The notes below the pieces were generated by a model. It made no database searches. It was not told the DNA's origin and worked only from the letters and a program-made list of their open reading frames with translations. DNA of 64,000 nucleotides from Bacillales bacterium UBA784 (GTDB lineage: Bacteria; Bacillota_I; Bacilli_A; RFN20; CAG-288): NCBI GenBank assembly GCA_002297045.1, contig DBJE01000010.1, positions 13,178 through 77,177 of the forward strand, read 5' to 3'. Below, one piece after another: positions 1-64,000 of the stretch (positions are counted from its first letter, which is position 1; every line of letters begins with the position of its first letter). The position numbers and the translations under genes were made by a program.

Positions 1-136
1 GATTACTTTGGAGGGAGGCAGGGGACTTCGTCCATGATTTTCAATTTACCTGAATCCTCTTGCAACATAATCTGCTAAAATAGTTCGCAGCAAGGTGTTG
101 CTTTCCTTGCCGCCGATGAAAAGGAGGATTTGCACA

Positions 137-1234
137 ATGAGGCAAAGACTAAGAGCAAGGCGTGAGCCGCTGAAGTATGTTCAGGGAAGAGATGCCCTTT
201 ATAAGTTCTTCGACGAGAGGCATTATAGGGGGAAGCGTTGGCTTTTTGTCTGCTCGAAGAGCGGATACAAAGCAGCCCACGACAAGCTTGAAAAGAGCTT
301 TGAGGGAAAAGAAGACTATCGCCGCTATGAGGTTTTCGGTGGAATCTCCTCGGTTTCCGAAATTAAAAAGAGGGAAGCCATCGTCAAGGAAGACAAAATT
401 GATACCGTCGTCGCCGTCGGCGGCGGAAGTGCTGTCGATACTGCAAAGGCTACGGCCTATTATAGGGGAAAGCACATTGTCATCGTTCCTACGGTTGCCG
501 CCACGGATGCTCCGTGCACCGGACTTTCCGTCATTTATAACGATGATGGATCCTTTAACCAGTATCTCTTTTATCCGACTAACCCGGATGCCGTTATTGT
601 CGACTGCAATATTATCGCTAATGCACCGGTGAAGTTCTTAATCGCCGGTATGGGCGATGCACTTGGCACTTATTTCGAAGGACGTGCTTCCATCCGTACG
701 GAATCCGCATCCCTTGAGGGAACCGGAATCACCCGTGCCGGCAGGGCACTTGCTAAGCTCTGCTATGAGACTCTCCGTGAATATGGTGCACAGGCTGTTG
801 AAGCATGTAAGGAACATGTCGTCACCCCTGCCTTAGAGAATATCTGCGAAGCCAATGTCTATCTTTCCGGCGTCGGTGCCGACAACGTCAACTGCGCTGC
901 CGCCCATTCCTTCTATAATGGTGTCACTTCCTTAGGCATCAAGCATGCCGACCATGGCTGCTGTGTTGCCTTCGGTACTCTTGTCCAGCTTATCCTTGAA
1001 GGAGCGACTAAGGAAGAGTTCAATGATGTCCAGGGCTTCTGCCGTGAAGTCGGGCTTCCGATTACTCTTGCCGAACTTGGTGTCACGACCGATGAGCAGA
1101 TCAAGACGATCAGCAAGAACGCCTGCGTCAAGGGAGAGACCATTCATAATCTTGCCGGAGACGTGCAGCCTGTCGAGCTCTTTGATGCCATCAAACATGC
1201 CGATGCTCTTGGCCGTCTTGTCTTAGGAAAGTAA
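137..1234 (+). CDS. gldA: glycerol dehydrogenase (group III metal-dependent alcohol dehydrogenase family)
   Basis: Lies in the frame of ORF 95..1234. AAGGAGG at 121-127 precedes ATG 137. Motifs GGGSAVDTAKA, TDAPCTGLSVIY, GDALGTYFE, HSFYNG and GETIHN are collinear with GldA. The start choice is inferred. Confidence 0.85.
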   Translation: MRQRLRARREPLKYVQGRDALYKFFDERHYRGKRWLFVCSKSGYKAAHDKLEKSFEGKEDYRRYEVFGGISSVSEIKKREAIVKEDKIDTVVAVGGGSAVDTAKATAYYRGKHIVIVPTVAATDAPCTGLSVIYNDDGSFNQYLFYPTNPDAVIVDCNIIANAPVKFLIAGMGDALGTYFEGRASIRTESASLEGTGITRAGRALAKLCYETLREYGAQAVEACKEHVVTPALENICEANVYLSGVGADNVNCAAAHSFYNGVTSLGIKHADHGCCVAFGTLVQLILEGATKEEFNDVQGFCREVGLPITLAELGVTTDEQIKTISKNACVKGETIHNLAGDVQPVELFDAIKHADALGRLVLGK

Positions 1235-1343
1235 GCAAACCTGTTTCCATTAGCCTCCGGAGAATTCCGGAGGCTATTTTTAATGTATCTATTTTCTTAT
1301 CGAAAAGGTAAAATAAGAACAAAAATCGGAGGGTGTTTTCATC

Positions 1344-8686: not shown

Positions 8687-8771
8687 AGAAGTTTTTCCGT
8701 TTTCCGACCTTAGTGGGTTTTAAGAGATTGATGACATTGGAGATAGAAAGGGAGCGACTATACACGTAGGG

Positions 8772-8799
8772 TGATTTTCCTCCTCTTTTCTGTTAAAAT
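8772..8799 (+). promoter_or_regulatory. candidate sigma-70 type promoter for the first LytTR/kinase pair
   Basis: TGATTT, then a 16-nt spacer whose last 3 nt are TGT (extended -10 TGn), then TAAAAT (8794-8799). It lies about 20 nt upstream of ATG 8819. Confidence 0.35.
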
Positions 8800-8818
8800 C
8801 GAGAAAGGAATGACTTCC

Positions 8819-21777: not shown

Positions 21778-23049
21778 ATGGCCAGTATTGAATTTGAAAA
21801 CGTTGTCAAAGTCTATCCCGGTGCCAAAAAGCCGGTCATCCCTAATCTGAATCTGAAAATCAAAGATAAGGAATTCATTATCCTTGTCGGTCCTTCCGGA
21901 TGCGGAAAGTCCACAACCTTGCGAAGGATAGCCGGACTTGAGGATATCACCGCCGGAACGCTCCGTATCGACGGAAAGAAAGTCAACGATGTCCCTGCCC
22001 GTGACCGGGATATCGCCATGGTCTTCCAAAGCTATGCCCTTTATCCGAACAGGACTGTCTACAAGAATATCGCCTTCCCGCTTAAGGTGAGAAAGCTAAC
22101 CGAGCGGGAGATTGCCTCCCGCAGGGAACTTGCCACGGCCATTGTCCGTAGGAAGAACAGGGACAAGGAACATGAGGAAAAGTTCCTGAATGCGGTAAGA
22201 ACGACAAAGCGGTACACGAAGGAAGAAATCGACTGGAAGGTCCATACTGTCGCCAAGATTCTTGATTTGGAGCCTTACCTTGACCGTAAACCGGCCAACC
22301 TCTCAGGCGGTCAGCGCCAGCGTGTCGCCCTTGGCCGTGCCATGGTCCGCTCCCCGAAGGTCTTCCTCCTCGATGAGCCTCTCTCTAACCTTGATGCTAA
22401 GCTCCGTACGGAAAGGCGTTCCCAGATTTCCCTTCTCCATAAGCAACTGGATACGACCTTTGTCTATGTCACCCACGACCAGACCGAGGCAAGGACGATT
22501 GCCGACCGGATTGTCGTCCTTGATAAAGGAGTCGTTCAGCAGTTTGATACTCCGCGGAATCTCTTTGAGCGTCCCTGCAACAAGTTCGTCGCCGGCTTTA
22601 TCGGTTCTCCGGAAAGGAACTTCCTTCCTGTGGATGTCTTTATGGAAGGGGATAAGTGCTTCCTTACCTTAAATGGCCATAAGCTGGATGTTACTTCTTC
22701 TCTTAACAAGGAGCATCAGCTCGATAAGCTAAATGGAAAGAAGACGGAACTTGGTATCCGTCCGGAATCCATTGGACTTGTCACTTCTTCAAATATTGAT
22801 TCCCTTGATCCTAACTTCATCTATAAGGTCCATGTCAAGATTGCCGAATACCTAGGTTCGGAACTCTATCTCTACTTTGACTTTGCGGGTAAAGCCGCCA
22901 TCGCCCGTATTCCCTCGAAGTACTTCGTCAAGACCGGGGATGATGTGAAAATCTATATCGATCCCAAAAAGAGCTACGTCTTTGATCCCAACACGACCAA
23001 TACCCTCTCCTTCCCTGAACCGAGTGAAGAGGTCCGTCTAGACGTCTAA
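21778..23049 (+). CDS. sugar ABC transporter ATP-binding protein (MalK/MsmK/UgpC type) with an internal insertion
   Basis: Walker A GPSGCGKST, signature LSGGQRQRVALGRA, Walker B VFLLDEPLSNLD and a C-terminal TOBE-like domain. About 35-45 extra residues sit between the Q-loop region and the signature motif. Confidence 0.9.
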   Translation: MASIEFENVVKVYPGAKKPVIPNLNLKIKDKEFIILVGPSGCGKSTTLRRIAGLEDITAGTLRIDGKKVNDVPARDRDIAMVFQSYALYPNRTVYKNIAFPLKVRKLTEREIASRRELATAIVRRKNRDKEHEEKFLNAVRTTKRYTKEEIDWKVHTVAKILDLEPYLDRKPANLSGGQRQRVALGRAMVRSPKVFLLDEPLSNLDAKLRTERRSQISLLHKQLDTTFVYVTHDQTEARTIADRIVVLDKGVVQQFDTPRNLFERPCNKFVAGFIGSPERNFLPVDVFMEGDKCFLTLNGHKLDVTSSLNKEHQLDKLNGKKTELGIRPESIGLVTSSNIDSLDPNFIYKVHVKIAEYLGSELYLYFDFAGKAAIARIPSKYFVKTGDDVKIYIDPKKSYVFDPNTTNTLSFPEPSEEVRLDV

Positions 23050-24564: not shown

Positions 24565-24586
24565 GTAAGGAAGCTTGAATCAAAAG

Positions 24587-24615
24587 AAAATCCGCGCCAT
24601 GAGGCGCGGATTTTT
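24587..24615. terminator. bidirectional rho-independent terminator
   Basis: AAAATCCGCGCC atga GGCGCGGATTTTT, with an 8-bp GC-rich stem. Confidence 0.75.
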
Positions 24616-26299: not shown

Positions 26300-26314
26300 A
26301 TGTAAGCGCTTGAC
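26300..26314. promoter_or_regulatory. cre-like half-conserved box upstream of the GH2 gene
   Basis: ATGTAAGCGCTTGAC has a perfect left half-site (TGTAAGCG) and a degenerate right half. Confidence 0.3.
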
Positions 26315-26381
26315 CGGACTTCTTCGGAAAGATATTATTTTTCATGGCTGGCCCAAAGTCGCGAACATAAAGGAACTGAAA

Positions 26382-29357
26382 ATGCGTAAGAAAAATATAT
26401 GGTTTTTACTAACCCTTTCTCTCTCTTTATCTTTAGGATTGTCGGACTTATTGAAGCGAAAAACATCGAATTGCGAACCAAATATCAGTGATAAAGAAGA
26501 TGGAGGAGCTCTGCTTGCCCAGAAGAGCAGTGTGGTCCAGTCTGGAGAACGGGAAATTGATTTCAACTACAATTGGTCATTCCAAAAGGGGAATCTACTC
26601 TCTGACAGACCTTATGAGAACTATTATGACGACTCGGCCTGGGAAAGCGTTAATCTTCCCTATGACTGGTCTATCTATGAAGACTATGATCCACAGGTTT
26701 CTTCGGAAATCGGTCATCTTGCTGGCGGATACGGATGGTACCGCAAAGAATTCACCGTTCCTGATGCCCTGAAAGGAAAGAAAATCACCATACACTTTGA
26801 TGGTGTATATAGGGATTCCACTGTTTATGTAAATGGTAAAAAAGTCGGGAACTATCCAAATGGTTATGTGCCCTTCTCCTATGACATTACCGACTATCTG
26901 AAATTCGGCGATAACGAAGTCAATGTCATTGCCGTAGAGGTCATCAATCTTTCCGACTATAACGGAAGCACAGCTCGCTGGTATTCTGGTTCCGGCATCT
27001 ACCGTGATGTCACTCTTCTTGTTCAGGATGCCCTCCACATCGATGAATTCGGCACTACCATCAATCTTCCCGACCTCAAGAAGAGCTATACGGAAAATCC
27101 AAAGGACTTCTCTGCAACGACTTCCGTCCTTATCCCTATCTCTAATGCCAGTAGCGAAGAAAAGACCTTCACTGTCCGGACCACGCTTCTCGACTATAAG
27201 ACCAAGGAGAAGGTCGGCGACTATTCTCTTTCTTCCCAAGAATACTCTCTTAAGCCTGGTGAAAAGAAGAAAATCGTCAATGATCTTGCGGTCAAAAATC
27301 CTAAGAGGTGGTCCACGGAGCATCCCAATCTCTACTACATCCAGAGCGAGCTTTTAGAAGGCGATAAAGTCATCGAGACCCGCCTAGACCGCTTTGGCTA
27401 TCGGTTCTTTGACTGGTTTAGCTATAAGGATGCCACGGAACGTGGAGCGAAAGGAGAGGGCTTCTTCCTTAACGGTGAGTTTGTCAACCTTAAAGGTGTC
27501 TGCAGGCATCACGACCAGGGCGCTCTTGGCGCCGTGGCGAATCCTACGGCCATCTACCGCCAAAGGCAGACAAGGAAGGATAGGGGGGTCAATTCCATCC
27601 GTATTACTCACAACGTTGCCGATTCCTCTCTTCTGCAGGCATGCGATGAAAGGGGATTTCTTGCCATCGAAGAGTTCTTCGATTCCTGGTATTCGGCCAA
27701 GGCGGCCAACGATTTCTGGCGGTTCTTCGAAAAACAGGCAACACATCCTGATGCAAAGGAGGGACAGACCTGGGCAGAATTCGATGTCCGTTCTGTCATC
27801 AAGAGGCATCGCAATTACCCATCTATTGTCAGGTGGTCCGTCGGAAACGAAATCTGGGACACCCATAATTTCAATGTCGGTTCTGCCGAACAGGCAAAGG
27901 GACTCAAGACCAGGAAAAACTTAGTTTCCTACTGCCATGAGTCGGATGTCGATGCCGAAGATGATAGCCGGTCTTCCGGACAGAGAAGATTTGTCACCAT
28001 CGGACAGAATCAGTGGAAGGAAAGTGCAAGGCCGCTTCTTGCCGAACTCGATGCGGTCGGATACAACTATTGGTACAACCTCAACTTCGGAAGCAAGTAC
28101 GATGTTTCGGACTGGCGGTTCTATGGCTCGGAGACTTCTTCCGCAGTCAAATCGCGCGGATACTATCGCAAAGGCGGAGCCGAAAACTCCCAGCAGCTTA
28201 GGATGGAGGGAGTCGGAGACCAGTGCTCGAGCTTTGATAATTCCTCTGTCCCCTGGGGCGGAACGGCTTCCTATTATCTTAAGAGAATCCAGGAAAATAA
28301 GAGCGTCATCAACCAAGAAAGCACAAATTTCGGCGCAACACAGCTTTTCATGGCCGGCGAATATGTCTGGACCGGTTTTGATTATCGGGGAGAGCCTACT
28401 CCGTGGAACCAGCTCCAGGGACGTAATCCGCACTCTTCCTTCTTTGGCATCGTCGATACTGCCGGTTTTGCAAAAGATGATTACTACCTCTATCAGTCTC
28501 AGTGGATTGACGGAGAGAGTGATCCAAGGGTCCATATCGTCGGACACTATAACTGGGAAGACCCGGTTCTTCGTGCTCAAAGGCAGAATGAGGACGGATC
28601 GATTCCGATTAAGGTCTATTCCAATGCCGATGCCGTAGAGCTTTTCCTGCAAAAGCCCGGCGAAGAGGCGACCTCCTTAGGGCGGAAAGAGTTTGTCGAA
28701 TACACCAAGACCAACCACAGCCTGATAAGCACGTATCAGCGGAGCAAGGATAGTCCGAACAAACTCTATCTGGAATGGAATAACCTACCTCAATATGCCT
28801 ATCAGGCAGGGACGAAGATAATTGCCAAAGCCTATAAGAAGGAAGCAAACGGAAGCTTCACCGAAATCCAGAGGGATGTCGATAAGAGGGAGCGGAATCA
28901 TCGGCAGAACGAAATCGTCACTTCTTCTACGCCTTATAAGGTCGTCCTCACTCCGGAAAAGAAGGAGAGGACTGCCGACGGGTACGATCTCATCTACATT
29001 GATGCCGAAATCCAGGATAAGGATGGTAATTTCTGCCCTAATGCGGACAACCTGATCAACTTTGCCTATATCGGAGATGCCAAGGTCGCCCAAATCGAAG
29101 GAGTTGACAATGGCAATGCCGATTCCTGGGAACGGGCAAAGGATTATAACGGTTCCTGGCGCCGTCAGGCTTTTAACGGACGTGCACTTCTTATCGTCAA
29201 AGCCAAAAAGGATGCCGGAAGGTTCTCTATTCAGGCCACATCGACAGGCCTTATGGCTGATGTGACAACCCTCTTTGCCAAGGCCGGAGAGTCTCTTCCG
29301 ACCGACAAAGAGCAGGTCGTCTACTACTATGCTCCGCAGAAGGAAAAAAACATATAA
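26382..29357 (+). CDS. secreted/anchored GH2 glycoside hydrolase (beta-galactosidase-like, DUF4982-containing subgroup)
   Basis: ATG 26382 with an N-terminal hydrophobic segment. Sugar-binding domain GYGWYRKEF...HFDGVYRDSTVYVNG, barrel CRHHDQGALG, acid/base (AGG)WSVGNE, nucleophile region AGEYVWTGFDYRGEP. Confidence 0.85.
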   Translation: MRKKNIWFLLTLSLSLSLGLSDLLKRKTSNCEPNISDKEDGGALLAQKSSVVQSGEREIDFNYNWSFQKGNLLSDRPYENYYDDSAWESVNLPYDWSIYEDYDPQVSSEIGHLAGGYGWYRKEFTVPDALKGKKITIHFDGVYRDSTVYVNGKKVGNYPNGYVPFSYDITDYLKFGDNEVNVIAVEVINLSDYNGSTARWYSGSGIYRDVTLLVQDALHIDEFGTTINLPDLKKSYTENPKDFSATTSVLIPISNASSEEKTFTVRTTLLDYKTKEKVGDYSLSSQEYSLKPGEKKKIVNDLAVKNPKRWSTEHPNLYYIQSELLEGDKVIETRLDRFGYRFFDWFSYKDATERGAKGEGFFLNGEFVNLKGVCRHHDQGALGAVANPTAIYRQRQTRKDRGVNSIRITHNVADSSLLQACDERGFLAIEEFFDSWYSAKAANDFWRFFEKQATHPDAKEGQTWAEFDVRSVIKRHRNYPSIVRWSVGNEIWDTHNFNVGSAEQAKGLKTRKNLVSYCHESDVDAEDDSRSSGQRRFVTIGQNQWKESARPLLAELDAVGYNYWYNLNFGSKYDVSDWRFYGSETSSAVKSRGYYRKGGAENSQQLRMEGVGDQCSSFDNSSVPWGGTASYYLKRIQENKSVINQESTNFGATQLFMAGEYVWTGFDYRGEPTPWNQLQGRNPHSSFFGIVDTAGFAKDDYYLYQSQWIDGESDPRVHIVGHYNWEDPVLRAQRQNEDGSIPIKVYSNADAVELFLQKPGEEATSLGRKEFVEYTKTNHSLISTYQRSKDSPNKLYLEWNNLPQYAYQAGTKIIAKAYKKEANGSFTEIQRDVDKRERNHRQNEIVTSSTPYKVVLTPEKKERTADGYDLIYIDAEIQDKDGNFCPNADNLINFAYIGDAKVAQIEGVDNGNADSWERAKDYNGSWRRQAFNGRALLIVKAKKDAGRFSIQATSTGLMADVTTLFAKAGESLPTDKEQVVYYYAPQKEKNI

Positions 29358-35548: not shown

Positions 35549-36265
35549 CTACTTCTGGCTTGAGCCTTCTACGGCCTTAGTCTTCTCTTTGAGGTCTTCG
35601 CTTAGATCCCATTTGGAGAAGCCTTCGGTATGGGGAAGATAGACATCCCATCCGTTAAGTTCGTTCAGCTTGAACTTGATATCCTTTCCGCTAAGCTTCA
35701 GGATATGTCCGCCTTTCGTCAGATCCTTGCTGAGGAAGTGGATATGCCAGCCCGGCAAGTTCCTTCCGTCGACATATTTCGGACAATAGACTCCGATGAC
35801 ATAGCCATCGACATTTTGATATTCCCTCTCTCTTTGGTCGCAGGCAACCTTATAGAGAGGTTCATAAGGCTCCTTCTGCTTGAAGCAGGAACGGACACGG
35901 ACAGTAAAGGTTCCTTCCCTCTTGATCCTATAGAAGAAATTATGGGACCCTAAGAAGGATTCCCTTTTCTCCTTGAACTCATCGATGGAGTCAAAGGAGA
36001 GAGTGTTTTCCTTTGCCTTATCGTTGAAGTGACAGACAGTCGAGAAAGGAAGCTTATCTTCCTCTTTCCTTTCATAGACCTTGCCATCCGCTCTTCCGTC
36101 ATAGGCCTTACCGTTAAAGATGATGGCCTCTCCGTCAAGTCCGTCATAGGTACCGATTCCGGTATCGCCCTTTTTTAATAGGTCCTTGACGGAGACTGAT
36201 CCATGATAGTCTCCCCTCCTTAGACTGTTTAACGTACCGACCTGGAATAACTTTTCTTCTTTCAT
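35549..36265 (-). CDS. alsD: alpha-acetolactate decarboxylase
   Basis: LFQVGTLNSL(AGG)(AGG)GDY...GDTGIGTYDGLDGEAIIFNGKAY and GWHIHFLS are collinear with AlsD/BudA. Confidence 0.85.
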   Translation of the reverse strand: MKEEKLFQVGTLNSLRRGDYHGSVSVKDLLKKGDTGIGTYDGLDGEAIIFNGKAYDGRADGKVYERKEEDKLPFSTVCHFNDKAKENTLSFDSIDEFKEKRESFLGSHNFFYRIKREGTFTVRVRSCFKQKEPYEPLYKVACDQREREYQNVDGYVIGVYCPKYVDGRNLPGWHIHFLSKDLTKGGHILKLSGKDIKFKLNELNGWDVYLPHTEGFSKWDLSEDLKEKTKAVEGSSQK

Positions 36266-36271: not shown

Positions 36272-37516
36272 TTACCTCTTATTCTGTCCCTGATTATTTT
36301 TCACATCTTCCTTATGGGACTTAAGAGAGAAGATGTGCGGATAGATAATATGGTTATGGTGATGAGTGCGATAGTTTCCTTTTTCATCGTAGACGGCGGA
36401 AAGAAGCTCAGGATGGGAGAGGGAGAAGATGCGCTTTGGATCTTCCCTCTTTATCCCTTGGTGGCGTTTGAAGTAGAGATTCCTTTCCCATTTTGTGAAG
36501 AAAGGAGAAAGGATATTCGTCACAAAGAGAACGATGGCAAGAATCAGGACGGAATTTGATACCATGGTCTGACTGAATACCACACCTTTAAACGTATAGG
36601 AAGCGAACATCGCTGGGATGGAAAGAGCAACACCGGCTAGAGCGGTCGATGCCATGGAGGCATAGCCAGGACGTTTAAGGATAACATGATCGACAAGAGA
36701 AGGAATGATCCTGGTAAAGCACCAATAGATAAGAATAAGGACAATGGCCGCAATCCAGACCTTTCCACTGGTGAAGGCCTGCACCAGATTGATGGTCGAA
36801 CCGAATTCGAATCCAAGGAAGGGAAGGATGATGGCATTTCCACCCTTGAATACCTTACGGATGTCTTCATCAAGGTTTCCTAAAATGAATCCGAGGATGA
36901 AAGGAAGAAGCAGGGCGACAATCTGCCTTACCTTAGAAGTGATGGAAGCAGCTTCTTCTGATGTGCCAAGGCTGGAGATGACGATAAATGGAAGAAGAGG
37001 CCTAGAAATGACGCACCTAATTGGGAAGGCGGCACGGTCTGCGTTATCGGCATAAGGGTGGATGATGCCCCTATAAAGGGCAGCATTTGCCGAGGTGATG
37101 CAGACACAGAAGGTGACTGGATCAATCCCTAAAAAGCCATTTGGGCAGAAGAGGAAGACAAGTACGGAGGCTAGATAGGCAGGGACAAGTCTTGCCAGAA
37201 TAATCCAGATTCCCCGTTTAAAGACGTCTCCGAAATCGCTCGGCTTTATCCTTGTTCCTGTGCAGAAGAGCCTAAGTCCAATCAACAGGTTCTGTCCGGT
37301 CTTGCCGAAGAGATCCTTCCTTGGGTTACCTAGATATTCCCATAAGGTCTCTCCTTCTCCCGCATTTCCGGTGCCAAGTCCACAGGCAATGCAGATGGAG
37401 CTGATGATGGCGGAGATGACAAGCGGAACGAACCTCGTTCCGGCAGGAATCTTGTTGAGGAATTTCCAGATTCCTATGCCATGGAACTTCTTTTTTTCAT
37501 TGCTTGTGTTTTCCAT
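36272..37516 (-). CDS. kdgT: 2-keto-3-deoxygluconate permease family transporter with C-terminal extension
   Basis: KIPAGT(AGG)FVPLV near the N-terminus, and LLPFILGFILGNLDEDIRKVFKGGNAIILPFLGFEFGSTINL matching the KdgT core (ILGNLD...GG...PF...LG..INL). Confidence 0.75.
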   Translation of the reverse strand: MENTSNEKKKFHGIGIWKFLNKIPAGTRFVPLVISAIISSICIACGLGTGNAGEGETLWEYLGNPRKDLFGKTGQNLLIGLRLFCTGTRIKPSDFGDVFKRGIWIILARLVPAYLASVLVFLFCPNGFLGIDPVTFCVCITSANAALYRGIIHPYADNADRAAFPIRCVISRPLLPFIVISSLGTSEEAASITSKVRQIVALLLPFILGFILGNLDEDIRKVFKGGNAIILPFLGFEFGSTINLVQAFTSGKVWIAAIVLILIYWCFTRIIPSLVDHVILKRPGYASMASTALAGVALSIPAMFASYTFKGVVFSQTMVSNSVLILAIVLFVTNILSPFFTKWERNLYFKRHQGIKREDPKRIFSLSHPELLSAVYDEKGNYRTHHHNHIIYPHIFSLKSHKEDVKNNQGQNKR

Positions 37517-42692: not shown

Positions 42693-43236
42693 ATCCGTCG
42701 TCTAGGACAAAAGTCATTAGCTGGCAGTTATCCACCTTGAAGGTAAAGAACTCCTCGTTGCTCCTGTCGTGGAAATAGGAATAGACGATCCGGGAGATGC
42801 CTTGGTGGCCGACGACAAGGATGTTTTTTCCTTTTTCCTTTTCCTTCCTTTCATCGAAGAAGGAATAGATCCGGCAGGCTGCCTGGAAATAGTTCTCCCC
42901 GTGAGGATAGTGGTAGGCGACTCTGGCCGAATTCTCCTTGAGGAAAGGATCAAAGCGGCTCTTCCCGTCGATGTCGCCATAGTTGATTTCCAATAGTCTT
43001 GGATCCTTGACAATTTCTATCTTCCGTCCCTGAAGGGCAATCTCTGCCGTCTCATAGGCACGGCATAAGGGGGAGGAATAGGCTTTGTCTAGATGAACTA
43101 AGGCAAGGGACTTCTTAAGTCCTTCCGCCTGCTCTCTTCCCTCTATGGAAAGAGGAATGTCAAAGCGTCCCTGCGTCTTATTCTCCTTGTTCCACTCGGT
43201 GAGTCCGTGTCTTGTGTAATAAACCGTTGTCATCAT
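42685..43236 (-). CDS. histidine phosphatase (phosphoglycerate mutase-like) family protein
   Basis: YTRHGLTEWN catalytic RHG motif, followed by VVGHQG. Its 3' end overlaps the convergent gene by 8 nt. Confidence 0.8.
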   Translation of the reverse strand: MMTTVYYTRHGLTEWNKENKTQGRFDIPLSIEGREQAEGLKKSLALVHLDKAYSSPLCRAYETAEIALQGRKIEIVKDPRLLEINYGDIDGKSRFDPFLKENSARVAYHYPHGENYFQAACRIYSFFDERKEKEKGKNILVVGHQGISRIVYSYFHDRSNEEFFTFKVDNCQLMTFVLDDGSI

Positions 43237-43280
43237 GCTTTAAGTATACCCTAGGGAAAGCACTTTTCTGCCACGTGTTA

Positions 43281-43395
43281 TCCTTTGGTAAGCGTTACCT
43301 AGAGACAATCTACGACACGAAAGCATCAATCTGTGCCGATAATCACCAAAAACAAAGAAAGAGTATTATCCTTTCTGTAAACGCTTACCAAAGGA
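43281..43395 (+). promoter_or_regulatory. long-range inverted repeat able to sequester the RBS of the GPH transporter gene
   Basis: 43281-43298 (TCCTTTGGTAAGCGTTAC) is complementary to 43377-43395 (GTAAACGCTTACCAAAGGA) with one bulge. The 3' arm contains the AAAGGAG Shine-Dalgarno sequence. The arms are about 78 nt apart. Confidence 0.4.
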
Positions 43396-43406
43396 GAACC
43401 TTTTCT

Positions 43407-45377
43407 ATGGAAAAGACTAAAGAGAAGAAATCCGTGTTTACCACCCCCCTATTCTCATCCAAAATCAAGAAAAGCGCCGTATCCCTGTTCCCGGAAGCGG
43501 GACTTGGCTATCTGATCGGCCCTCTTCTTGCCTTAATCAGCAATGGCGTAGTCAACAGGTGGCTTATCCAGTACTGGGACAAGGTATTAAGGCTCAAGGA
43601 GTGGAATCCTCTCTTTGAGACCCTGATGCCGATTGTCTCCTCTATCGTCATCGTCATCGGAAACCTGCTTGTAGGAAAATTAAGGGAACGCAAGCCCACT
43701 CTTGCCGGAAAGGCACGTCCTTTCATTCTCTTAGGAAGGCCGCTTATCGCCCTTGCCCTCCTTGTCCTCTTCTTAGTCCCCCTTCCTGCCGGGGCCGGAG
43801 GAACCACATCGAATCTTAGGGCATCGATTGTCATCGCCGTAGGCTATAACCTTTATTACGCCTTGGCCTGGCCGATTTACTACACCTCCCATTCTGCTTT
43901 GGTTAATCTTTCCACCCGCGACGGAGGGAAGCGCGGACTTCTCTCTACCTGCATCATGGCTGCCCAGCTTGGGGCATCTGGCGTCTCGGGAAGGGCTGGA
44001 GGTCTTCTTGTCGACTTAATCGGCCTTCTTCCCAAGTATTCCGTTAGCGGCGTCAAAGAGACCTTCACTTCCCTTAATGATGCCACGACCTATGCGAAAG
44101 CCAATGGAATTGCCACGGAGGAGATTAAAGAACTTATCTCCCCTTCCCAGGCAAACAGCAAGTGGACCATTTTAAGGATCATCAGGATTGTCTGCCTTGT
44201 CCTTGGCTGTCTTCTTGAGTATTACTTCACCCGTGAACGCATTACCGAAGAGAACATCAAGAATGCGACCAATAAGGAAGGCGATACGAGGGAAGTAAAG
44301 AGCGCGACAAGGAAAGAACAGAGGAAGATCTGTGTCAAGGATAAATACTGGTGGCTTATTATCGTCTTCTTCTTCCTTTATCAGTTCGGCGGACAGAGGA
44401 AGAATAACGACAGGTCCTTCTATTCCCAGGCCATGACCTCCGGAACGACTCTTTCGTCCATAATTAACACTGTCGGTGCCATCCCTACAGCCTTAGGAAG
44501 GCTTGTTGTCTGGCCTCTTGCCAATAAGTTCGGCAAGGCTAAGACGATTGTCGGCGGCTCCCTTCTCGCCTTCTTAGGCTCTCTTCTTGCCTTTGCCTGT
44601 TTGATGCCTTCCTTCTCCTCCACCGCCGCCGTCTCCACTATCTCCGTCACCTCTTTCTGCGTCAAGGCCTTAGGTACCGCTCCGGCCAGGTACATCTCCT
44701 TAGCCCTTCTTGCCAACGTCCTCGACCATCAGGAAGCCCTCTATGGAAAGAGAACGGATGGTTTCACTAGGGCCGTATATGGTTCCATCATGGTGGCTAT
44801 GTCCGGTGTCTGCAATGGCATCATTGCCGGTCTTAATGCCGTAACCCCAAGGGAGAACCAGAAGCTTGTCCATACGATCCTAGGCTTCCTTGTCGAAGGC
44901 GTCTGTTATCTTGCAAGGGCCCTTAGGTTCTTGGCAAGGACTGTCGAAAAGTTCACGAAGCTTGACAATGAGACCATCGAAGAACATCAGAAGGACCTCT
45001 GCCTGAAGGAAGGCAAGGAGTGGATTACTCCCAAAGACCGGGCCAAGAGGGAAGACGAAGAGGTTGCAAGACAGCTCGAGGAAGCCCGTGTCCACCAGCT
45101 TAAAGCGGACTGCGAGAAGAAGCATCTGGACTTTGACAAGGAAAACGGGAAGTATCTCGCTAAGAAGGAAAAGCAGGAAAGGGAAGCAAAGGAAAAGAAG
45201 GAAGCCGCCGAGAAGAAGAAGGAACAGGCAAAGGAGGCTAAGGAAGCCAAGTTTGCCGCCCTTCCTAAGGAAAAACAGGAAAAGATCCTTGCCAAGCAGG
45301 CGGTGGAAGAAAAGAAGCTTCGGGACGAATATAACCTTCTTCTCCTTAAGGCAAAGGAAAGCGGCTTAGCTGTTTAG
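43407..45377 (+). CDS. GPH-family (glycoside-pentoside-hexuronide) cation symporter with 143-aa Lys/Glu-rich C-terminal tail
   Basis: AAAGGAG then ATG 43407. GPH signature region GKL(AGG)ERKPTLAGKARPFILLG. About 12 hydrophobic segments. The tail spans 44946..45374. Confidence 0.7.
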   Translation: MEKTKEKKSVFTTPLFSSKIKKSAVSLFPEAGLGYLIGPLLALISNGVVNRWLIQYWDKVLRLKEWNPLFETLMPIVSSIVIVIGNLLVGKLRERKPTLAGKARPFILLGRPLIALALLVLFLVPLPAGAGGTTSNLRASIVIAVGYNLYYALAWPIYYTSHSALVNLSTRDGGKRGLLSTCIMAAQLGASGVSGRAGGLLVDLIGLLPKYSVSGVKETFTSLNDATTYAKANGIATEEIKELISPSQANSKWTILRIIRIVCLVLGCLLEYYFTRERITEENIKNATNKEGDTREVKSATRKEQRKICVKDKYWWLIIVFFFLYQFGGQRKNNDRSFYSQAMTSGTTLSSIINTVGAIPTALGRLVVWPLANKFGKAKTIVGGSLLAFLGSLLAFACLMPSFSSTAAVSTISVTSFCVKALGTAPARYISLALLANVLDHQEALYGKRTDGFTRAVYGSIMVAMSGVCNGIIAGLNAVTPRENQKLVHTILGFLVEGVCYLARALRFLARTVEKFTKLDNETIEEHQKDLCLKEGKEWITPKDRAKREDEEVARQLEEARVHQLKADCEKKHLDFDKENGKYLAKKEKQEREAKEKKEAAEKKKEQAKEAKEAKFAALPKEKQEKILAKQAVEEKKLRDEYNLLLLKAKESGLAV

Positions 45378-45387: not shown

Positions 45388-47844
45388 ATGAAATATCAGG
45401 ACATCATTTCAAAAAGGACGCTGGAGCAGAAGGCTTCGCTTCTCTCCGGAAAGAACTTCTGGGAGACTGAGGATATTCCCGAACTTGGGATTGAAAGTAT
45501 TTTCCTCTCCGACGGCCCGAACGGACTTCGGAAACAGGCTAAGGCGGCAGACCATCTTGGATTAAACCCTTCCATCCCCGCCGTCTGCAGGCCGACAAGT
45601 GCGACAAGGGCCAATTCCTGGGATCCTGAGTTAGTCAAGACGGCCGCAAAGACCATCGGCGAGGAAGCCGCGGTCAGCGACGTCTCGGTTCTCTTAGGTC
45701 CTGGCATCAACAGGAAACGCAACCCCCGCTGCGGACGGAATTTCGAGTACTTCTCCGAGGATCCCTATCTTGCCGGAAAACTTGCCGTCGGGTACATCAC
45801 CGGCGTACAGGAAAACGGAATCGGCTGCTGCCTTAAGCATTTTGCCTGCAACAACCAGGAAATCCGCCGCATCACCTCAAACTCCGTCCTGGACGAACGG
45901 ACAAGGCGGGAAATCTACCTGACTGCCTTTGAAAGGGCGGTCAAGGAGGCTAAGCCTCTTTCCGTCAGGTCTTCCTATAACAAAATCAACGGGACCTATG
46001 CCAACGAGAATGTCCACCTCCTTGTCGACATTCTCCGCAAGGACTGGGGATTTAAAGGAATCGTCGTGTCCGACTGGGGCGGAGACAACGACCGCATCGA
46101 GGCAGTCAAGGCCCAGTCCGAACTGGAAAGGCCGACGACCGATGGGGAAACAAACCGGGAAGTCGTCAAGGCCGTCAAGGAAGGAAGAATCAAGGAAGAG
46201 GACGTCGACCTTCTTGTCGACCGTCTCCTCGATGTCATCTTTACCACGAAGAAGAATTTAGAAGGGGCTCCGAAGGATTTCGATAAGCAGGAGCACCACC
46301 TTATTGCCCAGCATGTCGCGGAAGAGTCCCTTGTCCTTCTTAAGAACAAGGATGCCTTGCTTCCGCTTAAGCCGAACACCAAGGTTGCCATTATCGGAGA
46401 TTTTGCCGAAAACAGGCGTTTCCAGGGTGCCGGAAGTTCCGTTGTCAATCCTCTGAAGGTCGATCAGATCAATGAGGTCTTAAAAGAGTATCCGCTGAAT
46501 GTCGTCGGATATGAAAAAGGCTTCAAACGGTATGGAAAGAAAAGCCAGGGCAGGATTGATAAGGCCCTTAAGCTTGCCGACAAGGCCGATGTCATCCTTC
46601 TCTTCGCCGGCCTTGACGAAGTAAGCGAGGCCGAAGGCATCGACCGTGCCAACATCCGTCTTCCCCTTAACCAGCGGGAACTGATTTCCGCCCTGTACCA
46701 TACCGGAAAGAAAATCGTCCTTGTCCTTGAATGCGGCGCTCCGATCGAAATGCCTTTTGCCGACCGGGTCGATGCGATTCTTCACGCCTATCTTGCCGGC
46801 GAAGCCGGGGCTAGAGCGATTCTCAATGTATTGACCGGAAAGGTCAATCCGTCCGGAAAGCTCGCGGAATCCTATCCTTATGGATATGCCGACTGTCCTT
46901 CTGCCGACCATTTTGGAAAGAACGATAAGAACATCGAGTACCGGGAGAGCCTCTTTATCGGCTACCGCTACTATAACGGCTTCTGCCGTTCCGGGGCAAG
47001 ATTCCCCTTCGGCTTTGGCTTAAGCTACACGACTTTCAGATACGATAACCTGAACGTGTCGGACAAAGGGGTTTCCTTTACCGTTACGAATACCGGAGAC
47101 GTCGAGGGAAAGGAAATCGCCCAAAGGTACATCGGAAGGAAGGATTCCAAGATCTTCCGTGCCCCCTATGAACTAAAAGGCTTTGCCAAGGTCTTCCTTA
47201 AGGCTAAGGAGACGAAGGAAGTCTTTATTCCCTTCGATGAGTTCTCTTTCCGCTTCTTCTCCGTCAAGGACAATAAGTTTGAAGTGGAAGAGGGCAACTA
47301 TCAGATTTATGTCGGACCAAGCAGTGTCGACTTCCCTTTGAAGGGAGAAATCCATAAGGAAGGCGTCGATGCTTCTTCTCTCTATGACAAAGAAAAGCTT
47401 CCCCACTATTTCTCCGGGGATGTCCGTCAGATCCCGGATGAGGAATTTGAAGCCCTTCTTGGCCACCCTATCCCTAAGGATGATACTTCCTATATCAAGA
47501 AGCATCGGATTAAGGTCGACTATAATTCCTCTATCAGCGATCTCCATTATGCCAAAGGCTGGACCGGACGCCGTTTTGCCGGTGCCATCCGCTTTGCCAT
47601 CAAGTTCCTTAAGGCTATCGGAAAGCGTACGACGGCGAATACCCTGATTAGGGGTGTATACTATAATCCGGTCCGTGCTCTTTCCCGGATGACGGGAGGA
47701 GCCATGAGTATGGCCCAGCTTGACGGCCTGATTAGGATGTTCAACGGACACTTCTTCAAGGGTCTTCATCATCTCAATAAGAGGGGAAGACTTAAAAAGA
47801 AGAGGAAGAAAGAACAGGAGAAGAGGAAAAAACAGAAGGCTTGA
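45388..47844 (+). CDS. cytoplasmic GH3 beta-glucosidase/beta-xylosidase-like enzyme, canonical domain order
   Basis: No signal peptide. Motifs LSDGPNGLRKQ, GRNFEYFSEDP, KHFACNNQE, VVSDWGG, then LLKNKDALLPL, FPFGFGLSYTTF and an Fn3-like domain. Ends in a basic tail. Confidence 0.9.
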   Translation: MKYQDIISKRTLEQKASLLSGKNFWETEDIPELGIESIFLSDGPNGLRKQAKAADHLGLNPSIPAVCRPTSATRANSWDPELVKTAAKTIGEEAAVSDVSVLLGPGINRKRNPRCGRNFEYFSEDPYLAGKLAVGYITGVQENGIGCCLKHFACNNQEIRRITSNSVLDERTRREIYLTAFERAVKEAKPLSVRSSYNKINGTYANENVHLLVDILRKDWGFKGIVVSDWGGDNDRIEAVKAQSELERPTTDGETNREVVKAVKEGRIKEEDVDLLVDRLLDVIFTTKKNLEGAPKDFDKQEHHLIAQHVAEESLVLLKNKDALLPLKPNTKVAIIGDFAENRRFQGAGSSVVNPLKVDQINEVLKEYPLNVVGYEKGFKRYGKKSQGRIDKALKLADKADVILLFAGLDEVSEAEGIDRANIRLPLNQRELISALYHTGKKIVLVLECGAPIEMPFADRVDAILHAYLAGEAGARAILNVLTGKVNPSGKLAESYPYGYADCPSADHFGKNDKNIEYRESLFIGYRYYNGFCRSGARFPFGFGLSYTTFRYDNLNVSDKGVSFTVTNTGDVEGKEIAQRYIGRKDSKIFRAPYELKGFAKVFLKAKETKEVFIPFDEFSFRFFSVKDNKFEVEEGNYQIYVGPSSVDFPLKGEIHKEGVDASSLYDKEKLPHYFSGDVRQIPDEEFEALLGHPIPKDDTSYIKKHRIKVDYNSSISDLHYAKGWTGRRFAGAIRFAIKFLKAIGKRTTANTLIRGVYYNPVRALSRMTGGAMSMAQLDGLIRMFNGHFFKGLHHLNKRGRLKKKRKKEQEKRKKQKA

Positions 47845-48922: not shown

Positions 48923-49645
48923 ATGAATACACCAGTCAAAGTTTCCGTCATCGAAGACGACGGAAAATATCATCAGATTATCCACGGATACCTTCAAGAG
49001 TACGGAAAAAAGAAGGGTATTGAGTTTCATGTCCAGGATTATTCCGATGGACTGGCCTTTCTTGAAGAATACAAGGGAGACGCGGATGTTTTGTTCATGG
49101 ACATCGAAAGGCCGCAGAGGGACGGACTTGAAGTCTGTAGAAAACTGCGCAAGATTGATCCCTATGTCCCGATTATCATCGTTTCCCATTCTGCCCAGTA
49201 TGCGGTCAAGGGCTATGAGGTCAATGCCCTTGGCTATGTGGTCAAGCCGATTGTCCGGTTTGATTTCTTCTTCCTTCTTGACAAGGTGAGGGAAAGAAGG
49301 AAGGACAAGGAACAGCACTACCTTGTCCTCTCAAATAAAAGCACGGTCAAGAAGATTTCCCTTGACGACATTCTTTATCTGGAGGTCTCTTCCCATACCA
49401 TCAAGGTGAGAAGGAAGAAGGAAACCATCGAATTCCGGGGGAAAATCAAGGACTATGAGGACAGACTCTGCCGTTATTCCTTTTTCCGGTGCAATAATTC
49501 CTTCTTGGTCAACCTGAAATACTGCGATAAAGTCTCTGTCGGGGACAGCACTATCGACAGGGGTGGAACGATTATCTCCATCTCCCGTCCAAAGAAGAAA
49601 CAATTCCTTGAGACATTGGCAGATTATTTAAAGGACGAAATATAG
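48923..49645 (+). CDS. LytTR-family response regulator, copy 2
   Basis: Receiver VSVIEDD...LFMDIE(AGG)PQ(AGG)DGLE followed by a LytTR-like C-terminal domain (ILYLEV...LVNLKY). Confidence 0.85.
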   Translation: MNTPVKVSVIEDDGKYHQIIHGYLQEYGKKKGIEFHVQDYSDGLAFLEEYKGDADVLFMDIERPQRDGLEVCRKLRKIDPYVPIIIVSHSAQYAVKGYEVNALGYVVKPIVRFDFFFLLDKVRERRKDKEQHYLVLSNKSTVKKISLDDILYLEVSSHTIKVRRKKETIEFRGKIKDYEDRLCRYSFFRCNNSFLVNLKYCDKVSVGDSTIDRGGTIISISRPKKKQFLETLADYLKDEI

Positions 49646-49646
49646 G

Positions 49647-61048: not shown

Positions 61049-62818
61049 CTATTTGGCGTTAATGGCAATAGCAACAGTATTAGAGGAATATCCGATTTCA
61101 AGCTCCATGATTTTATTTTCTTTATTGACTTGAATCGTTTTTGTATAGATATCACCTTGGAAGTGTGTTCCTGAATTGCCTTTATCTAAGGCAAAACCAT
61201 TCTTTTCCAGTTTCGATTCCAAAGCCTTCACCTGGTTTAGGCCGGTCCCTGACAAAATCCGGTATTCGATGGCATAGTAGCGTTCTTTGCCCTCGTTCCC
61301 CTCTTCGTCTACCCCGTCTGAATAGTAAAGACCGGCAACCGATTCCTTTCCCCCAAGGATAGGAATCAAATCAAGGTTTTCCTTGCTGCCAAGAAGGGCG
61401 ATGACATTTTTGAGGATTTCACTATATCCGCTGACCAGATCGGATGTCTTTAATCCGTCCGTCGTTTCCTTTACGACGATGTCTGATCCGATATCCTCAT
61501 CGTCTAGGAAGGTATAAACGATCTCTTCGGTTTTCTGTGGATAGGTGAAATTGATGTTGAAGGTGACATTGCTTGAAGAGAGCTTGATCTTCCTCTCTCC
61601 GACAATCCTACCCTCTCCCGACCTATTGTAAATCTTGGTCGTGGAAAACATCGCCTTTTTGTTGTAAACGTAGGTGTTTAATTGATTCTCGTCCTTTTCA
61701 AAGAAGACACTCGACCTTTTAAAGGAAGGAAGAAGGGCGGTGACGGAGGCTTTTACCTTATCATGGTAGGCATAATATTCGTTGTTTAATCTGACCGCCT
61801 GTTGAATATAGCCACCGTCTTTGTACTGATAGAGGAACTCATTACTGATGCCTTGAGAAGACGAAGAAAGCAAAAGGCTCTTTCCATCTGTCTTTCCGGA
61901 GACCATGCTCTCCACTTCTAAGGCACTTTGGTCGGCATTCGGAGCAGAGATGGTGTCTACAAAGCTGTATTGGTTTGTTCTTAGTTTCTCTAAAGCCGCC
62001 TCTAGTTCAGGTTTTTCTGCATCGGTTGAGACGTTCACTTCTTTGTCGAAGGAAAAACCGTCTCCGGGGATGACATCCCCGGTAATGTTCCTTTCTGTCT
62101 GGCTAAATCCACCGTAAGGATTGAACAGGAGGGAGAAGGTGAAGGAATCTGTTTCTTCATCAAAGATGAAAGAGAACTCTTTTATGGTCCGTCCTGGGTT
62201 CTTCGGGTAGAACTGTTCGGCAAGCTTTGGAAGGAGGTTGCTGTTCTTGACCGAAGATGTATCTAAGACAAAGGCGTTATCTCCGGAAAAGAGAAAGTCG
62301 TCAATAGTCAGGGAAGAGAAAAGATTGATATAGCTCGAATCTTTCCATTTGACTGTGGCTTCGTCCTCTCCGATAGGAGCCGGAGAATAATCAACACGAT
62401 TGTCTATACCAAGGATCGGTTCACTGACATAAGGCGTCTCTGCGCTAGGATCATAGGTGTAATAGTAGGAAATATAGACTGTACTTCTATCTGCCTCTGC
62501 GTTCTGTTTGCTCTCATAACGGACGAATTCATATCCATCATCCTTGACGAAGACGTCCAGGCAGTAGTTACTATATCCCTCGTCCGTGTAATAGAAGTTC
62601 TTTCCCTTGAACGAATATCCCTTTTTCCTTTGTACAAGGAAGTCTTCAAAATGTTCTTCGGCAGTCTTTGGGGGAATGACAGTGGTGGGGGACTGGCTGT
62701 CTGGAATTGAATTCCCACTATTTTGCTTTTCGCCTGTGCCTGTTTTATTTCCCGAGCAGGAAGCAAGAAGCGAGAGAGGGAGAAAAAAGAGAATGATACG
62801 CTTACCTTTCATATCCAT
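61049..62818 (-). CDS. hypothetical lipoprotein
   Basis: 589 aa with lipobox LLASCSGN. No recognisable catalytic motif. Confidence 0.7.
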   Translation of the reverse strand: MDMKGKRIILFFLPLSLLASCSGNKTGTGEKQNSGNSIPDSQSPTTVIPPKTAEEHFEDFLVQRKKGYSFKGKNFYYTDEGYSNYCLDVFVKDDGYEFVRYESKQNAEADRSTVYISYYYTYDPSAETPYVSEPILGIDNRVDYSPAPIGEDEATVKWKDSSYINLFSSLTIDDFLFSGDNAFVLDTSSVKNSNLLPKLAEQFYPKNPGRTIKEFSFIFDEETDSFTFSLLFNPYGGFSQTERNITGDVIPGDGFSFDKEVNVSTDAEKPELEAALEKLRTNQYSFVDTISAPNADQSALEVESMVSGKTDGKSLLLSSSSQGISNEFLYQYKDGGYIQQAVRLNNEYYAYHDKVKASVTALLPSFKRSSVFFEKDENQLNTYVYNKKAMFSTTKIYNRSGEGRIVGERKIKLSSSNVTFNINFTYPQKTEEIVYTFLDDEDIGSDIVVKETTDGLKTSDLVSGYSEILKNVIALLGSKENLDLIPILGGKESVAGLYYSDGVDEEGNEGKERYYAIEYRILSGTGLNQVKALESKLEKNGFALDKGNSGTHFQGDIYTKTIQVNKENKIMELEIGYSSNTVAIAINAK

Positions 62819-62832
62819 ACCTCCGGACGAGA

Positions 62833-64000
62833 CTATTTGGTATCGGTTGTCTCAACAACCTTGATGGTGATGTCGGAAGAAATCGTATAATTATAACTAG
62901 TGAGGCCCTCATTCTTGATTTCCACACCCTTGTCATTGAATACTTGAAGTTGGAAATCGTGTCCTTCCGGAGCTGTGATACGGATCTGAAGGATGATTTT
63001 TCCTGTGCTATCAGGAATTAAGGCGCCGTCTAAACTATTGAGGACGCTACCGTAATTGACAACATAATAAAGCTTATATCCTTCCGGAGCTATCACAGTT
63101 GCCTTATAGCTTTCACTAGTTGATGGATTACTTTCGGCGGCGAGGCGAATCTTGGTCAGGCCTTCGACGACGGGAATCGAGTAACTGAAGTAACCTTTCA
63201 CTACTTCCGTTTCTTCCCCATTAATAGTCTGATAGACATGGAGAGTCTTATCGCTTACTGTGCTCTTTAAAGAAGCATAAAAGGAAATGCTTTCCCCGAT
63301 AAGGAATTGGGCGCACGTCTTCGTGTCTGAAATCTCAGCATGGCTTTGACTTCCGGTCCCGGAAACAGATGTCCTAGTCGATGAATCATAGCCTTCCAGA
63401 GTGACTGTCGCCTTGGCGGCTTCCTTAAAAACGGCTTTGATTGACAAAGAGGCGACATCCGGCATGACAAAGGTTCCGCTCTTTCCGTTCCTGACCGTCT
63501 TGATTTCTTCTCCGGTCGCCATATTGATTATCTTTTCGAAGGAATAATAGATTGATTCTGGTTCGACAGAGAAAGAGACGGTTTCTCCCTTTCGGTAAGT
63601 GCTGCGGACAAGGCTGAGTGTTCCATGCTCGGCGATTTCGTTTGTGATGACAATGCCATCTGCCGTAACAAGTTCGACCGAGCAGTCCCCTTCTTTCGGC
63701 CTTCGCCTTTCAAGATAGAGGACCCCAGTGCTGTCATTTTCGGCATAGACATAGCTTCCCTTGTTCCCGTCTTGGTCAATAGTCCGCGCACTTGTCACGA
63801 CTTTTCCATCGACAGTGACAGGATAGAGAAGAAAGACGGCATTTGCCCCACAGTATTCGCTTTCTTCTTTTGTGGTTTTGTTGACTATCTTGCAGGATTT
63901 GATGTCTTGGTTTGGCAAAAGGGTAATCTTACCGTTTTCCTTGCAGGGGAAGGTGATTGTAATATCCGAATCGGCCACAGTAAGCTTAAAGTAGGTTTCG
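62833..64000 (-). CDS. hypothetical beta-rich secreted/surface protein, 5' end outside the window
   Basis: The reading frame stays open to the window edge. Its stop lies 14 nt upstream of the lipoprotein start, so the two are likely co-transcribed. Confidence 0.55.
   Translation of the reverse strand, partial: ETYFKLTVADSDITITFPCKENGKITLLPNQDIKSCKIVNKTTKEESEYCGANAVFLLYPVTVDGKVVTSARTIDQDGNKGSYVYAENDSTGVLYLERRRPKEGDCSVELVTADGIVITNEIAEHGTLSLVRSTYRKGETVSFSVEPESIYYSFEKIINMATGEEIKTVRNGKSGTFVMPDVASLSIKAVFKEAAKATVTLEGYDSSTRTSVSGTGSQSHAEISDTKTCAQFLIGESISFYASLKSTVSDKTLHVYQTINGEETEVVKGYFSYSIPVVEGLTKIRLAAESNPSTSESYKATVIAPEGYKLYYVVNYGSVLNSLDGALIPDSTGKIILQIRITAPEGHDFQLQVFNDKGVEIKNEGLTSYNYTISSDITIKVVETTDTK

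Follow-up and report, generated by a model that had tools for sequence, protein, structure and literature searches.

AGG as the principal methionine codon in a 64-kb chromosomal segment of Candidatus Enterosoma, a published bacterial codon reassignment

Introduction

A change of meaning for AGG, with methionine in place of arginine, has been reported for eight genomes, GCA_002439645.1 among them (PMC8629427). This genome, Bacillales bacterium UBA6423, is entered as s__UBA7642 sp002297045 with the Codetta call AGG = Met (Figure 3 source data, Shulgina and Eddy, eLife 2021, PMC8629427). Here we analyze the meaning of AGG in 64,000 nucleotides of contig DBJE01000010.1 from Bacillales bacterium UBA784 (GCA_002297045.1, positions 13,178 to 77,177 of the forward strand), a stretch that we refer to at its full length as the window.

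In the three species of the reassigned clade, AGG occurs at 209-235 and AUG at 59-69 per 10,000 codons, making AGG the dominant Met codon, and among the Arg codons CGU is preferred (PMC8629427); the published values for GCA_002439645.1 are 235.2 for AGG and 60.2 for AUG at a guanine-plus-cytosine (GC) content of 0.462 (PMC8629427). For this clade a tRNA(CCU) has been reported that has A73, G2:C71 and C3:G70, is without A20 and adjoins a tRNA-Arg(CCG), and the outgroup tRNA has been reported with G73 (PMC8629427). The recoding was identified again in 2026, as that of Candidatus Enterosoma, in the KACI preprint (10.64898/2026.04.02.715157) and in a Nucleic Acids Research paper (PMC13092985). The latter included GCA_002439645.1 itself among the genomes analyzed and found only a Met-type tRNA(CCU), which has an anticodon stem of 5 bp and bears Met identity elements, in 9 clade genomes (PMC13092985). 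Beyond this clade, AGG has been assigned to Met in the mitochondria of some green algae (Noutahi et al. 2019, as cited in PMC8629427), and CGG or CGA has been reassigned to Trp or Gln in Anaerococcus, Peptacetobacter, another RFN20 clade and Absconditabacteria (PMC8629427). Arg codons have also given rise to a false inference, that of AGA/AGG to Lys in high-GC genomes (PMC8629427; KACI preprint 10.64898/2026.04.02.715157).

We estimate a probability of about 95% that the window derives from the chromosome of Candidatus Enterosoma (GTDB UBA7642) sp002297045, in which AGG means methionine and is read by a dedicated tRNA(CCU). This uncultivated gut bacterium belongs to the class Bacilli, order RFN20 and family CAG-288. 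The window's MalK-type ATPase and its alpha-acetolactate decarboxylase (AlsD) are 100% identical to proteins of GCA_002439645.1 (contigs DJPB01000148.1 and DJPB01000005.1), which places the window genome within the three-species reassigned clade, and both are also identical to proteins from many ENA and Logan metagenome contigs. At 235 AGG and 66 internal ATG per 10,000 codons and a GC content of about 0.46, the window agrees with the values published for the species. A first-pass annotation of this DNA, made from the letters of the stretch, had mentioned a codon-reassignment screen proposing AGG to Met in uncultivated Bacilli and had suggested that the contig fits that lineage. The screen is real (PMC8629427), and the identical proteins, from a genome itself listed as AGG = Met, confirm the fit. 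The window is the published case itself and not a new member or variant of it; the recoding is already known, having been published for the same species in 2021 and re-confirmed twice in 2026.

Methionine at AGG positions

We carried out a codon-to-profile inference of the Codetta type, which the first-pass annotation had proposed as a check, on four protein families of the window. Profile hidden Markov models were built from homologues of AlsD, a GH3 beta-glucosidase and the MalK-type ATPase, and a GH2 glycosidase was then added (150 representatives, at most 49% identity). Homologues of at least 85% identity were excluded by a rule blind to the AGG columns, and log-odds for 20 amino acids were summed for each codon over the aligned columns. 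With the first three families, the standard residue was returned for 59 of 61 codons, the exceptions being CCA, which was represented by a single column and is noise, and AGG, which was called as Met over 33 columns. With all four families the standard residue was recovered for 60 of 61 codons, and the 49 AGG columns scored +92.9 bits for Met and +20.8 for Leu, with Ile and Val lower and Arg at -40.5. Met was the AGG call in each of the four families taken separately: the AGG columns of MalK gave Met +18.1 and Arg -3.4 bits, those of the GH3 beta-glucosidase +32.1 and -15.5, and those of GH2 +24.1 for Met, +1.0 for Leu and -10.7 for Arg. CGT, CGC, CGG, CGA and AGA all decoded as Arg in the four-family profiles, AGA with a margin of just 1 bit over Lys in 12 columns. 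By summed score, AGG in these families aligns to Met columns.

The nearest standard-code orthologues of three of these proteins (P0002, P0092 and P0219, 79-81% identity) allowed a site-by-site cross-tabulation. Where the orthologues have Met, the window codon is AGG at 24 sites, ATG at 7 and another codon at 2, and at the 68 sites where they have Arg, the window has CGN or AGA at 54 and AGG at none. Viewed from the window, 24 of the 33 AGG sites stand opposite M and 4 opposite L, with F, S, K, V and E once each and R never. AGG thus faces Met at 24/33 sites versus 0/63 for CGN/AGA (Fisher p = 1.5e-15) and Arg at 0/33 versus 54/63 (Fisher p = 7.7e-18), while AGG and ATG are indistinguishable in this comparison (p = 0.65). 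The same division holds across all homologues, since the 13 columns with at least 90% Met carry AGG in 10 and ATG in 3 cases and the columns with at least 90% Arg carry CGN or AGA in 33 of 33, AGG never. This supports the earlier remark that conserved arginines are spelled CGN or AGA; every Arg of LSGGQRQRVALGRA, GRNFEY and HVDRSI is CGC, CGT or CGG. At the level of single proteins, Arg is found at the AGG columns of AlsD in none of 89 non-identical homologues, the nearest of which (79% identity) read MMMMMMFM there, and the nearest standard-code orthologue of the GH3 beta-glucosidase (81% identity) has M at 12 of the 17 AGG columns and R at none.

We also re-translated ten proteins, containing 130 AGG codons, with AGG as Arg (the baseline), Met or Leu and summed the scores of 19 Pfam domain hits. 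The sum was 1777.5 bits with Arg, 1857.9 with Leu and 1895.8 with Met. Met gained 118 bits over Arg, with 15 domains higher, 3 marginally lower and 1 equal, and it outscored Leu by 38 bits, with 13 domains higher and 4 lower; hydrophobicity alone therefore does not explain the gain. Among individual domains, the AlsD score was 222.8 with Arg, 240.6 with Met and 235.6 with Leu, the Response_reg score of a LytTR-type regulator was 57.6, 68.3 and 63.9, respectively, and the Glyco_hydro_3 score of the beta-glucosidase rose from 102.5 with Arg to 124.9 with Met. From its scores (Table 1), the MFS_2 protein separates a hydrophobic residue from Arg but not Met from Leu.

Codon usage and mistranslated database entries

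Codons were counted in 47 non-overlapping long open reading frames (ORFs) obtained by greedy choice, which cover 58 kb and 19,286 internal codons. AGG occurs 454 times (23.5 per 1000) and internal ATG 128 times (6.6 per 1000), a ratio of 3.5 to 1 in which AGG holds 78% of the two codons together, and 45 of the 47 ORFs have one AGG or more. Among the Arg codons CGT leads with 168, followed by AGA (145), CGG (118), CGC (82) and CGA (31). Read by the standard code, the encoded proteins would contain 0.66% Met and 5.17% Arg; with AGG as Met these values become 3.02% and 2.82%, a composition consistent with the 2.1-3.4% Met of the nearest standard-code orthologues. The GC content along the window ranges from 0.44 to 0.51. 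All 18 positions that the first-pass annotation cited as AGG are AGG and lie in the frame of the enclosing long ORF, with local peptide contexts as it described. Its central claim, that AGG acts as Met and not Arg, is borne out by the profile columns, the Pfam re-scoring, the orthologue cross-tabulation and the amino-acid composition.

Database relatives of AlsD, the GH3 beta-glucosidase and MalK show a sharp break with identity. Entries of at least 89% identity have R at all AGG columns and contain less than 1.1% Met, and entries of at most 81% identity mostly have M and never R, with no intermediates between them. The entries of at least 89% identity are clade members translated by code 11. 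That code-11 translations carry R where M is made, as had been claimed for this stretch, is directly visible in these public entries. They include P0001, P0091 and P0211-P0218, relatives of the genes at 35549-36265, 45388-47844 and 21778-23049, which are code-11 mistranslations from the NCBI, ENA, Logan and JGI collections. Inside the clade, interchange of ATG and AGG produces apparent M/R substitutions, of which there is 1 among the 42 differences of a MalK at 90% identity; this is consistent with recoding yet uninformative.

A dedicated tRNA(CCU) in the clade

To find the tRNA that could read AGG, we scanned one genome per GTDB species for a CCU anticodon loop, T-loop, G70, C71 and A73 together with a CCG anticodon loop 31-61 nt further on. 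Three of the 104 hits came from the clade, namely UBA4682, UMGS1247 and HGM10888, the last a Bacilli metagenome-assembled genome, and ARAGORN places tRNA(CCU) and tRNA(CCG) 13 nt apart in all three. Seven further loci came from metagenomes, in a scan that accepted every CCU tRNA lying upstream of a tRNA(CCG) identical to that of the clade. One identical 77-nt tRNA(CCU), GGCCGGGTAGCTCAGCATGGTAGAGCAACCGTCTCCTAAGCGGTTTGTCACGAGTTCGATTCTCGTCTCGGCCACCA, is present at 10 of 10 loci, and the flanks of all ten are AGG-rich (221-302 per 10,000 codons). The metagenome scan yielded no outgroup Arg-type tRNA(CCU) at the syntenic position, all 7 hits upstream of the clade's exact tRNA-Arg(CCG) being Met-type; the outgroup tRNA(CCG) presumably differs in sequence from that of the clade.

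The clade tRNA(CCU) has G1-C72, G2-C71, C3-G70 and A73, a 5-bp anticodon stem and the anticodon loop CUCCUAA. Its D-loop, AGCAUGGUA, has U20 in place of the arginine element A20. The tRNA-Arg(CCG) 13 nt downstream provides an internal control and has A20, U2-A71 and G3-C70. A genome-wide survey retrieved 98 CCU tRNAs with the same acceptor end. A20 is kept in 94 of these, mostly from Bacteroidota and presumably ordinary Arg tRNAs, so that G2:C71, C3:G70 and A73 occur in 94 A20-bearing tRNA-Arg(CCU) genes of other phyla. The genes without A20 are just the three of the clade (one identical sequence; L031 2947-3023, L079 5720-5796 and L108 1658-1734) and one malformed prediction. Because 94 of the 98 tRNA(CCU) with this acceptor end keep A20, the acceptor-stem 'Met elements' are not distinctive, and the loss of A20 is.

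The surroundings of the tRNA pair are also conserved. A promoter-like stretch, TTTTTGTTT...GGTGTATAAT, with an extended -10 of the TGnTATAAT type, lies in the 60 nt upstream of tRNA(CCU)-tRNA(CCG) at 10 of 10 loci (L031, L079, L108 and L111-L117), and a tRNA-Leu(CAG) is located about 2 kb from the pair on the opposite strand. Cluster membership did not link one of these loci, L111 (a tRNA pair on ERZ808262 NODE_2, GC 0.44), to the species of the window.

Genes of the window

By Pfam, the window is an ordinary carbohydrate-utilization region of a gut Firmicute and its gene content is not unusual (Table 1).

Table 1. Features of the window, with AGG content and the evidence for each where given
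Feature	Coordinates	Strand	Description	Evidence
Whole window	1..64000		AGG main methionine codon, CGT commonest arginine codon	Codon counts
MalK-type ABC ATPase	21778..23049	+	8 AGG; five (residues 50, 92, 213, 239, 280) on columns with Met as top residue	
GH2 glycosidase	26310..29357	+	18 AGG, 16 on well-occupied profile columns	
Alpha-acetolactate decarboxylase (AlsD)	35549..36265	-	8 AGG, no internal ATG	
KdgT-family permease	36272..37516	-	12 AGG	Pfam KdgT: Arg 234.6, Met 244.0, Leu 235.2
MFS_2 sugar transporter	43212..45377	+	23 AGG	Pfam MFS_2: Arg 111.8, Met 125.1, Leu 125.4
GH3 beta-glucosidase	45388..47844	+	17 AGG	
LytTR-type response regulator	48923..49645	+	Receiver D-I-E-M-P-Q-M-D-G, both Met = AGG (49109-49111, 49118-49120)	
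Sugar ABC transporter			Solute-binding protein, two permeases, MalK-type ATPase	Pfam
Glycosidases and surface proteins			GH2, several GH3 glycosidases; Big_2/Big_4 surface proteins	Pfam
Other genes			NAD-dependent epimerase/dehydratase; GT2 glycosyltransferase; phosphonate-type ABC transporter	Pfam

Several of these genes have features of their own. The MalK-type ATPase contains an insertion of about 46 residues inside ABC_tran, at residues ~105-160 (180 residues over 134 profile positions). The insertion occurs in relatives of 421-448 amino acids and not in the usual forms of about 365, and it holds three AGG codons in uninformative columns. Between AlsD and the epimerase lies a gene for an AAA_14/DUF4143 ATPase (34092-35393, minus strand) that is found in most contigs of the species; Logan SRR29834422 is without it, AlsD being followed directly by the epimerase, and the presence or absence of this gene is a strain-level insertion or deletion. 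Two GH3 arrangements are permuted. In one, an ORF for the C-terminal domain (5191-6531) is followed after 40 nt by a separate ORF for the N-terminal domain (6571-8118), and the pair may represent a form with two subunits or a gene that has been disrupted. In the other (50966-53998), a single protein of 1010 amino acids has the C-domain (residues 83-353) before the N-domain (residues 715-897). Two paralogous pairs of a LytTR response regulator and a GHKL (HATPase_c_5) kinase, at 8771-10887 and 48923-50969, each adjoin GH3 genes, a position that points to control of the glycosidase loci in response to peptides or sugars.

The ~1.7 kb that separates the FMN reductase gene from the GH2 gene (24565-26309) consists only of short overlapping ORFs with an atypical codon usage, in which AGA and ATG are comparatively frequent. 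This interval gave no match in Pfam or Rfam, and other assemblies call a single 75-amino-acid gene there. At gathering thresholds, Rfam returned no family for the window, and Pfam searches with nine small or unannotated ORFs returned no match.

Discussion

How the reassignment could work is suggested by the tRNA genes of the sister genomes and metagenomes. AGG in the window would be read by a dedicated tRNA with the anticodon CCU, whose gene would lie outside the window and be followed, 13 nt downstream, by a normal tRNA-Arg(CCG). This tRNA appears to have lost A20, the main identity element for arginyl-tRNA synthetase (ArgRS), in favor of U20, and its acceptor end of G1-C72, G2-C71, C3-G70 and A73 would be compatible with methionyl-tRNA synthetase (MetRS). 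Because A20 is lost and the acceptor end is MetRS-compatible, we infer that the tRNA is charged with Met by MetRS and not with Arg by ArgRS. It would decode AGG exclusively, with negligible reading of this codon by tRNA(UCU), and the Arg meaning stays with AGA and CGN. After the switch, AGG would have spread through synonymous replacement of ATG until it reached its present share of the internal Met codons.

Several observations weigh against this reading. No tRNA gene is present in the 64-kb window, and tRNA(CCU) was not recovered from any contig provably of the window's own species, the locus L111 being a likely candidate only. The clade tRNA(CCU) retains the Arg identity elements C35 and U36 and is without A35, the strongest MetRS determinant; because of this, the tRNA evidence alone is suggestive and not conclusive. 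Moreover, its Met-like acceptor end is common to the 94 A20-bearing tRNA-Arg(CCU), and the tRNA features alone do not prove Met charging. Within the searchable literature, no proteomic or biochemical confirmation of Met at AGG came to light. Of the 49 tested AGG columns, one is an exception, that of GH2 residue 499 (27804..27806, plus strand), where Arg is the commonest residue in the homologues and the profile gives P(R) = 0.29. Nine codons downstream of it, AGG occupies the invariant Met of MWSxGNE. Finally, the first-pass annotation had pointed to AGG in hydrophobic contexts, and this stands in part. Very hydrophobic contexts are about twice as common around AGG as around Arg codons (11.4% vs 5.1%, p = 3e-4), but the mean hydropathy of the neighbors is no different from that of Arg codons (p = 0.22). 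Window-wide and without homologues, the mean over +/-7 neighbors is -0.245 for AGG, -0.359 for CGN/AGA and -0.028 for ATG. Met is a context-ambivalent residue in these Lys/Glu-rich proteins, and the hydropathy test, in which the AGG mean cannot be distinguished from that of true Arg codons, is too weak to carry the argument. The case for Met rests on the codon-column evidence.

That evidence also bears on what else AGG might mean. AGG could be ambiguous, read mostly as Met by tRNA(CCU) and partly as Arg through wobble of tRNA(UCU), in which case proteins would be statistical mixtures at AGG sites. This was raised in the original description, as U34 of tRNA(UCU) can read AGG (PMC8629427), and the one GH2 column that favors Arg speaks for it; AGA usage below that of outgroup genomes fits selection for lower demand on tRNA(UCU). 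With AGG on 10 of 13 columns of at least 90% Met and on 0 of 33 of at least 90% Arg, however, frequent Arg would fall on invariant buried Met sites, where it would be costly, and although the level of misreading is beyond sequence data, we regard such ambiguity as unlikely. Nor is AGG likely to stand for another hydrophobic residue, such as Leu or Ile. Leu does come second in the column test and is the top residue at many AGG columns, and the Leu variant equals or slightly exceeds Met in the Pfam scores for MFS_2, Fn3-like and Glyco_hydro_2. Yet Met leads Leu by 72 bits in the column test and in 4 of 4 families, and by 38 bits, or 13 domains to 4, in Pfam; of the 33 AGG sites, 24 face M and 4 face L in the nearest orthologues, and the proteome would be left with just 0.66% Met without AGG. 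Taken together, these figures make another hydrophobic residue very improbable.

The standard code could be retained if the whole pattern were an artefact, whether from compositional drift of Met to Arg, a false call of the Codetta type, an error in sequencing or assembly, or the editing of AGG to AUG in RNA. Inferences on Arg codons are generally suspect because both Codetta and KACI give false AGR-to-Lys calls in some genomes (PMC8629427; 10.64898/2026.04.02.715157). The genomes that yield this Lys artefact are of high GC (median 0.68; PMC8629427), however, against 0.44-0.51 in the window. An exchange of Arg for Met is radical, yet here invariant Met sites are hit in no fewer than 10 unrelated families. 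Identical sequences recur in 14-22 contigs that were assembled independently (NCBI, ENA and Logan), the switch from all R to mostly M between 89% and 81% identity is abrupt, and the clade has a dedicated tRNA(CCU) without A20. We know of no bacterial G-to-U RNA editing system. On this evidence we reject a sequencing artefact, a false inference of the Arg/Lys type and RNA editing, and consider the standard code effectively refuted.

The original description stresses the 'Met identity' elements of the acceptor stem (PMC8629427), whereas the present survey suggests that these are not distinctive. It is conceivable, and we put it forward only tentatively, as a less probable course of events, that the decisive event was a single D-loop change from A20 to U20 on a tRNA-Arg(CCU) whose acceptor end of G2:C71, C3:G70 and A73 was already tolerated by MetRS. 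If this one-step reading were true, many bacteria would be one mutation from AGG mischarging, and AGG in this clade might still be decoded with measurable ambiguity between Met and Arg. A caveat is the G73 reported for the outgroup tRNA (PMC8629427).

The reassignment has practical consequences. Code-11 annotation is wrong at about 2.4% of residues, and in this 64 kb 454 Arg calls ought to read Met. The mistranslated public entries lower homology scores and contaminate and distort alignments, and gene calling, structure prediction and the databases for metaproteomic searches all require a translation table made for this clade. The reassignment is the first of a sense codon to be described in bacteria, and it is unusual in that the reassigned codon is now the majority codon of its new amino acid.

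Compared with the UBA7642/Candidatus Enterosoma system (PMC8629427), the window has the same organism, codon, amino acid and codon-usage signature, the tRNA(CCU) of the sister genomes and metagenomes has the same features and the same tRNA(CCU)-tRNA(CCG) order, and nothing substantive differs. What is added here is the finding that the acceptor end is common among A20-bearing tRNA-Arg(CCU) and that the loss of A20 is distinctive. The Lys artefact resembles this case as an apparent AGR reassignment derived from profile columns, but it involves a conservative Arg/Lys exchange at high GC with normal tRNA-Arg identity, whereas here Arg gives way to Met at a GC content of 0.46, on invariant Met columns and with a tRNA without A20. 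In green-algal mitochondria, the same codon has passed to the same amino acid; those are organellar systems with tiny gene sets, in contrast to a free-living bacterium in which AGG is the dominant Met codon proteome-wide. The CGG/CGA cases are likewise bacterial reassignments of Arg codons with a cognate tRNA of altered identity. Their reassigned codons are rare, suggesting an early stage, whereas AGG in Candidatus Enterosoma has rebounded to 23.5 per 1000 codons, 3.5 times the frequency of ATG.

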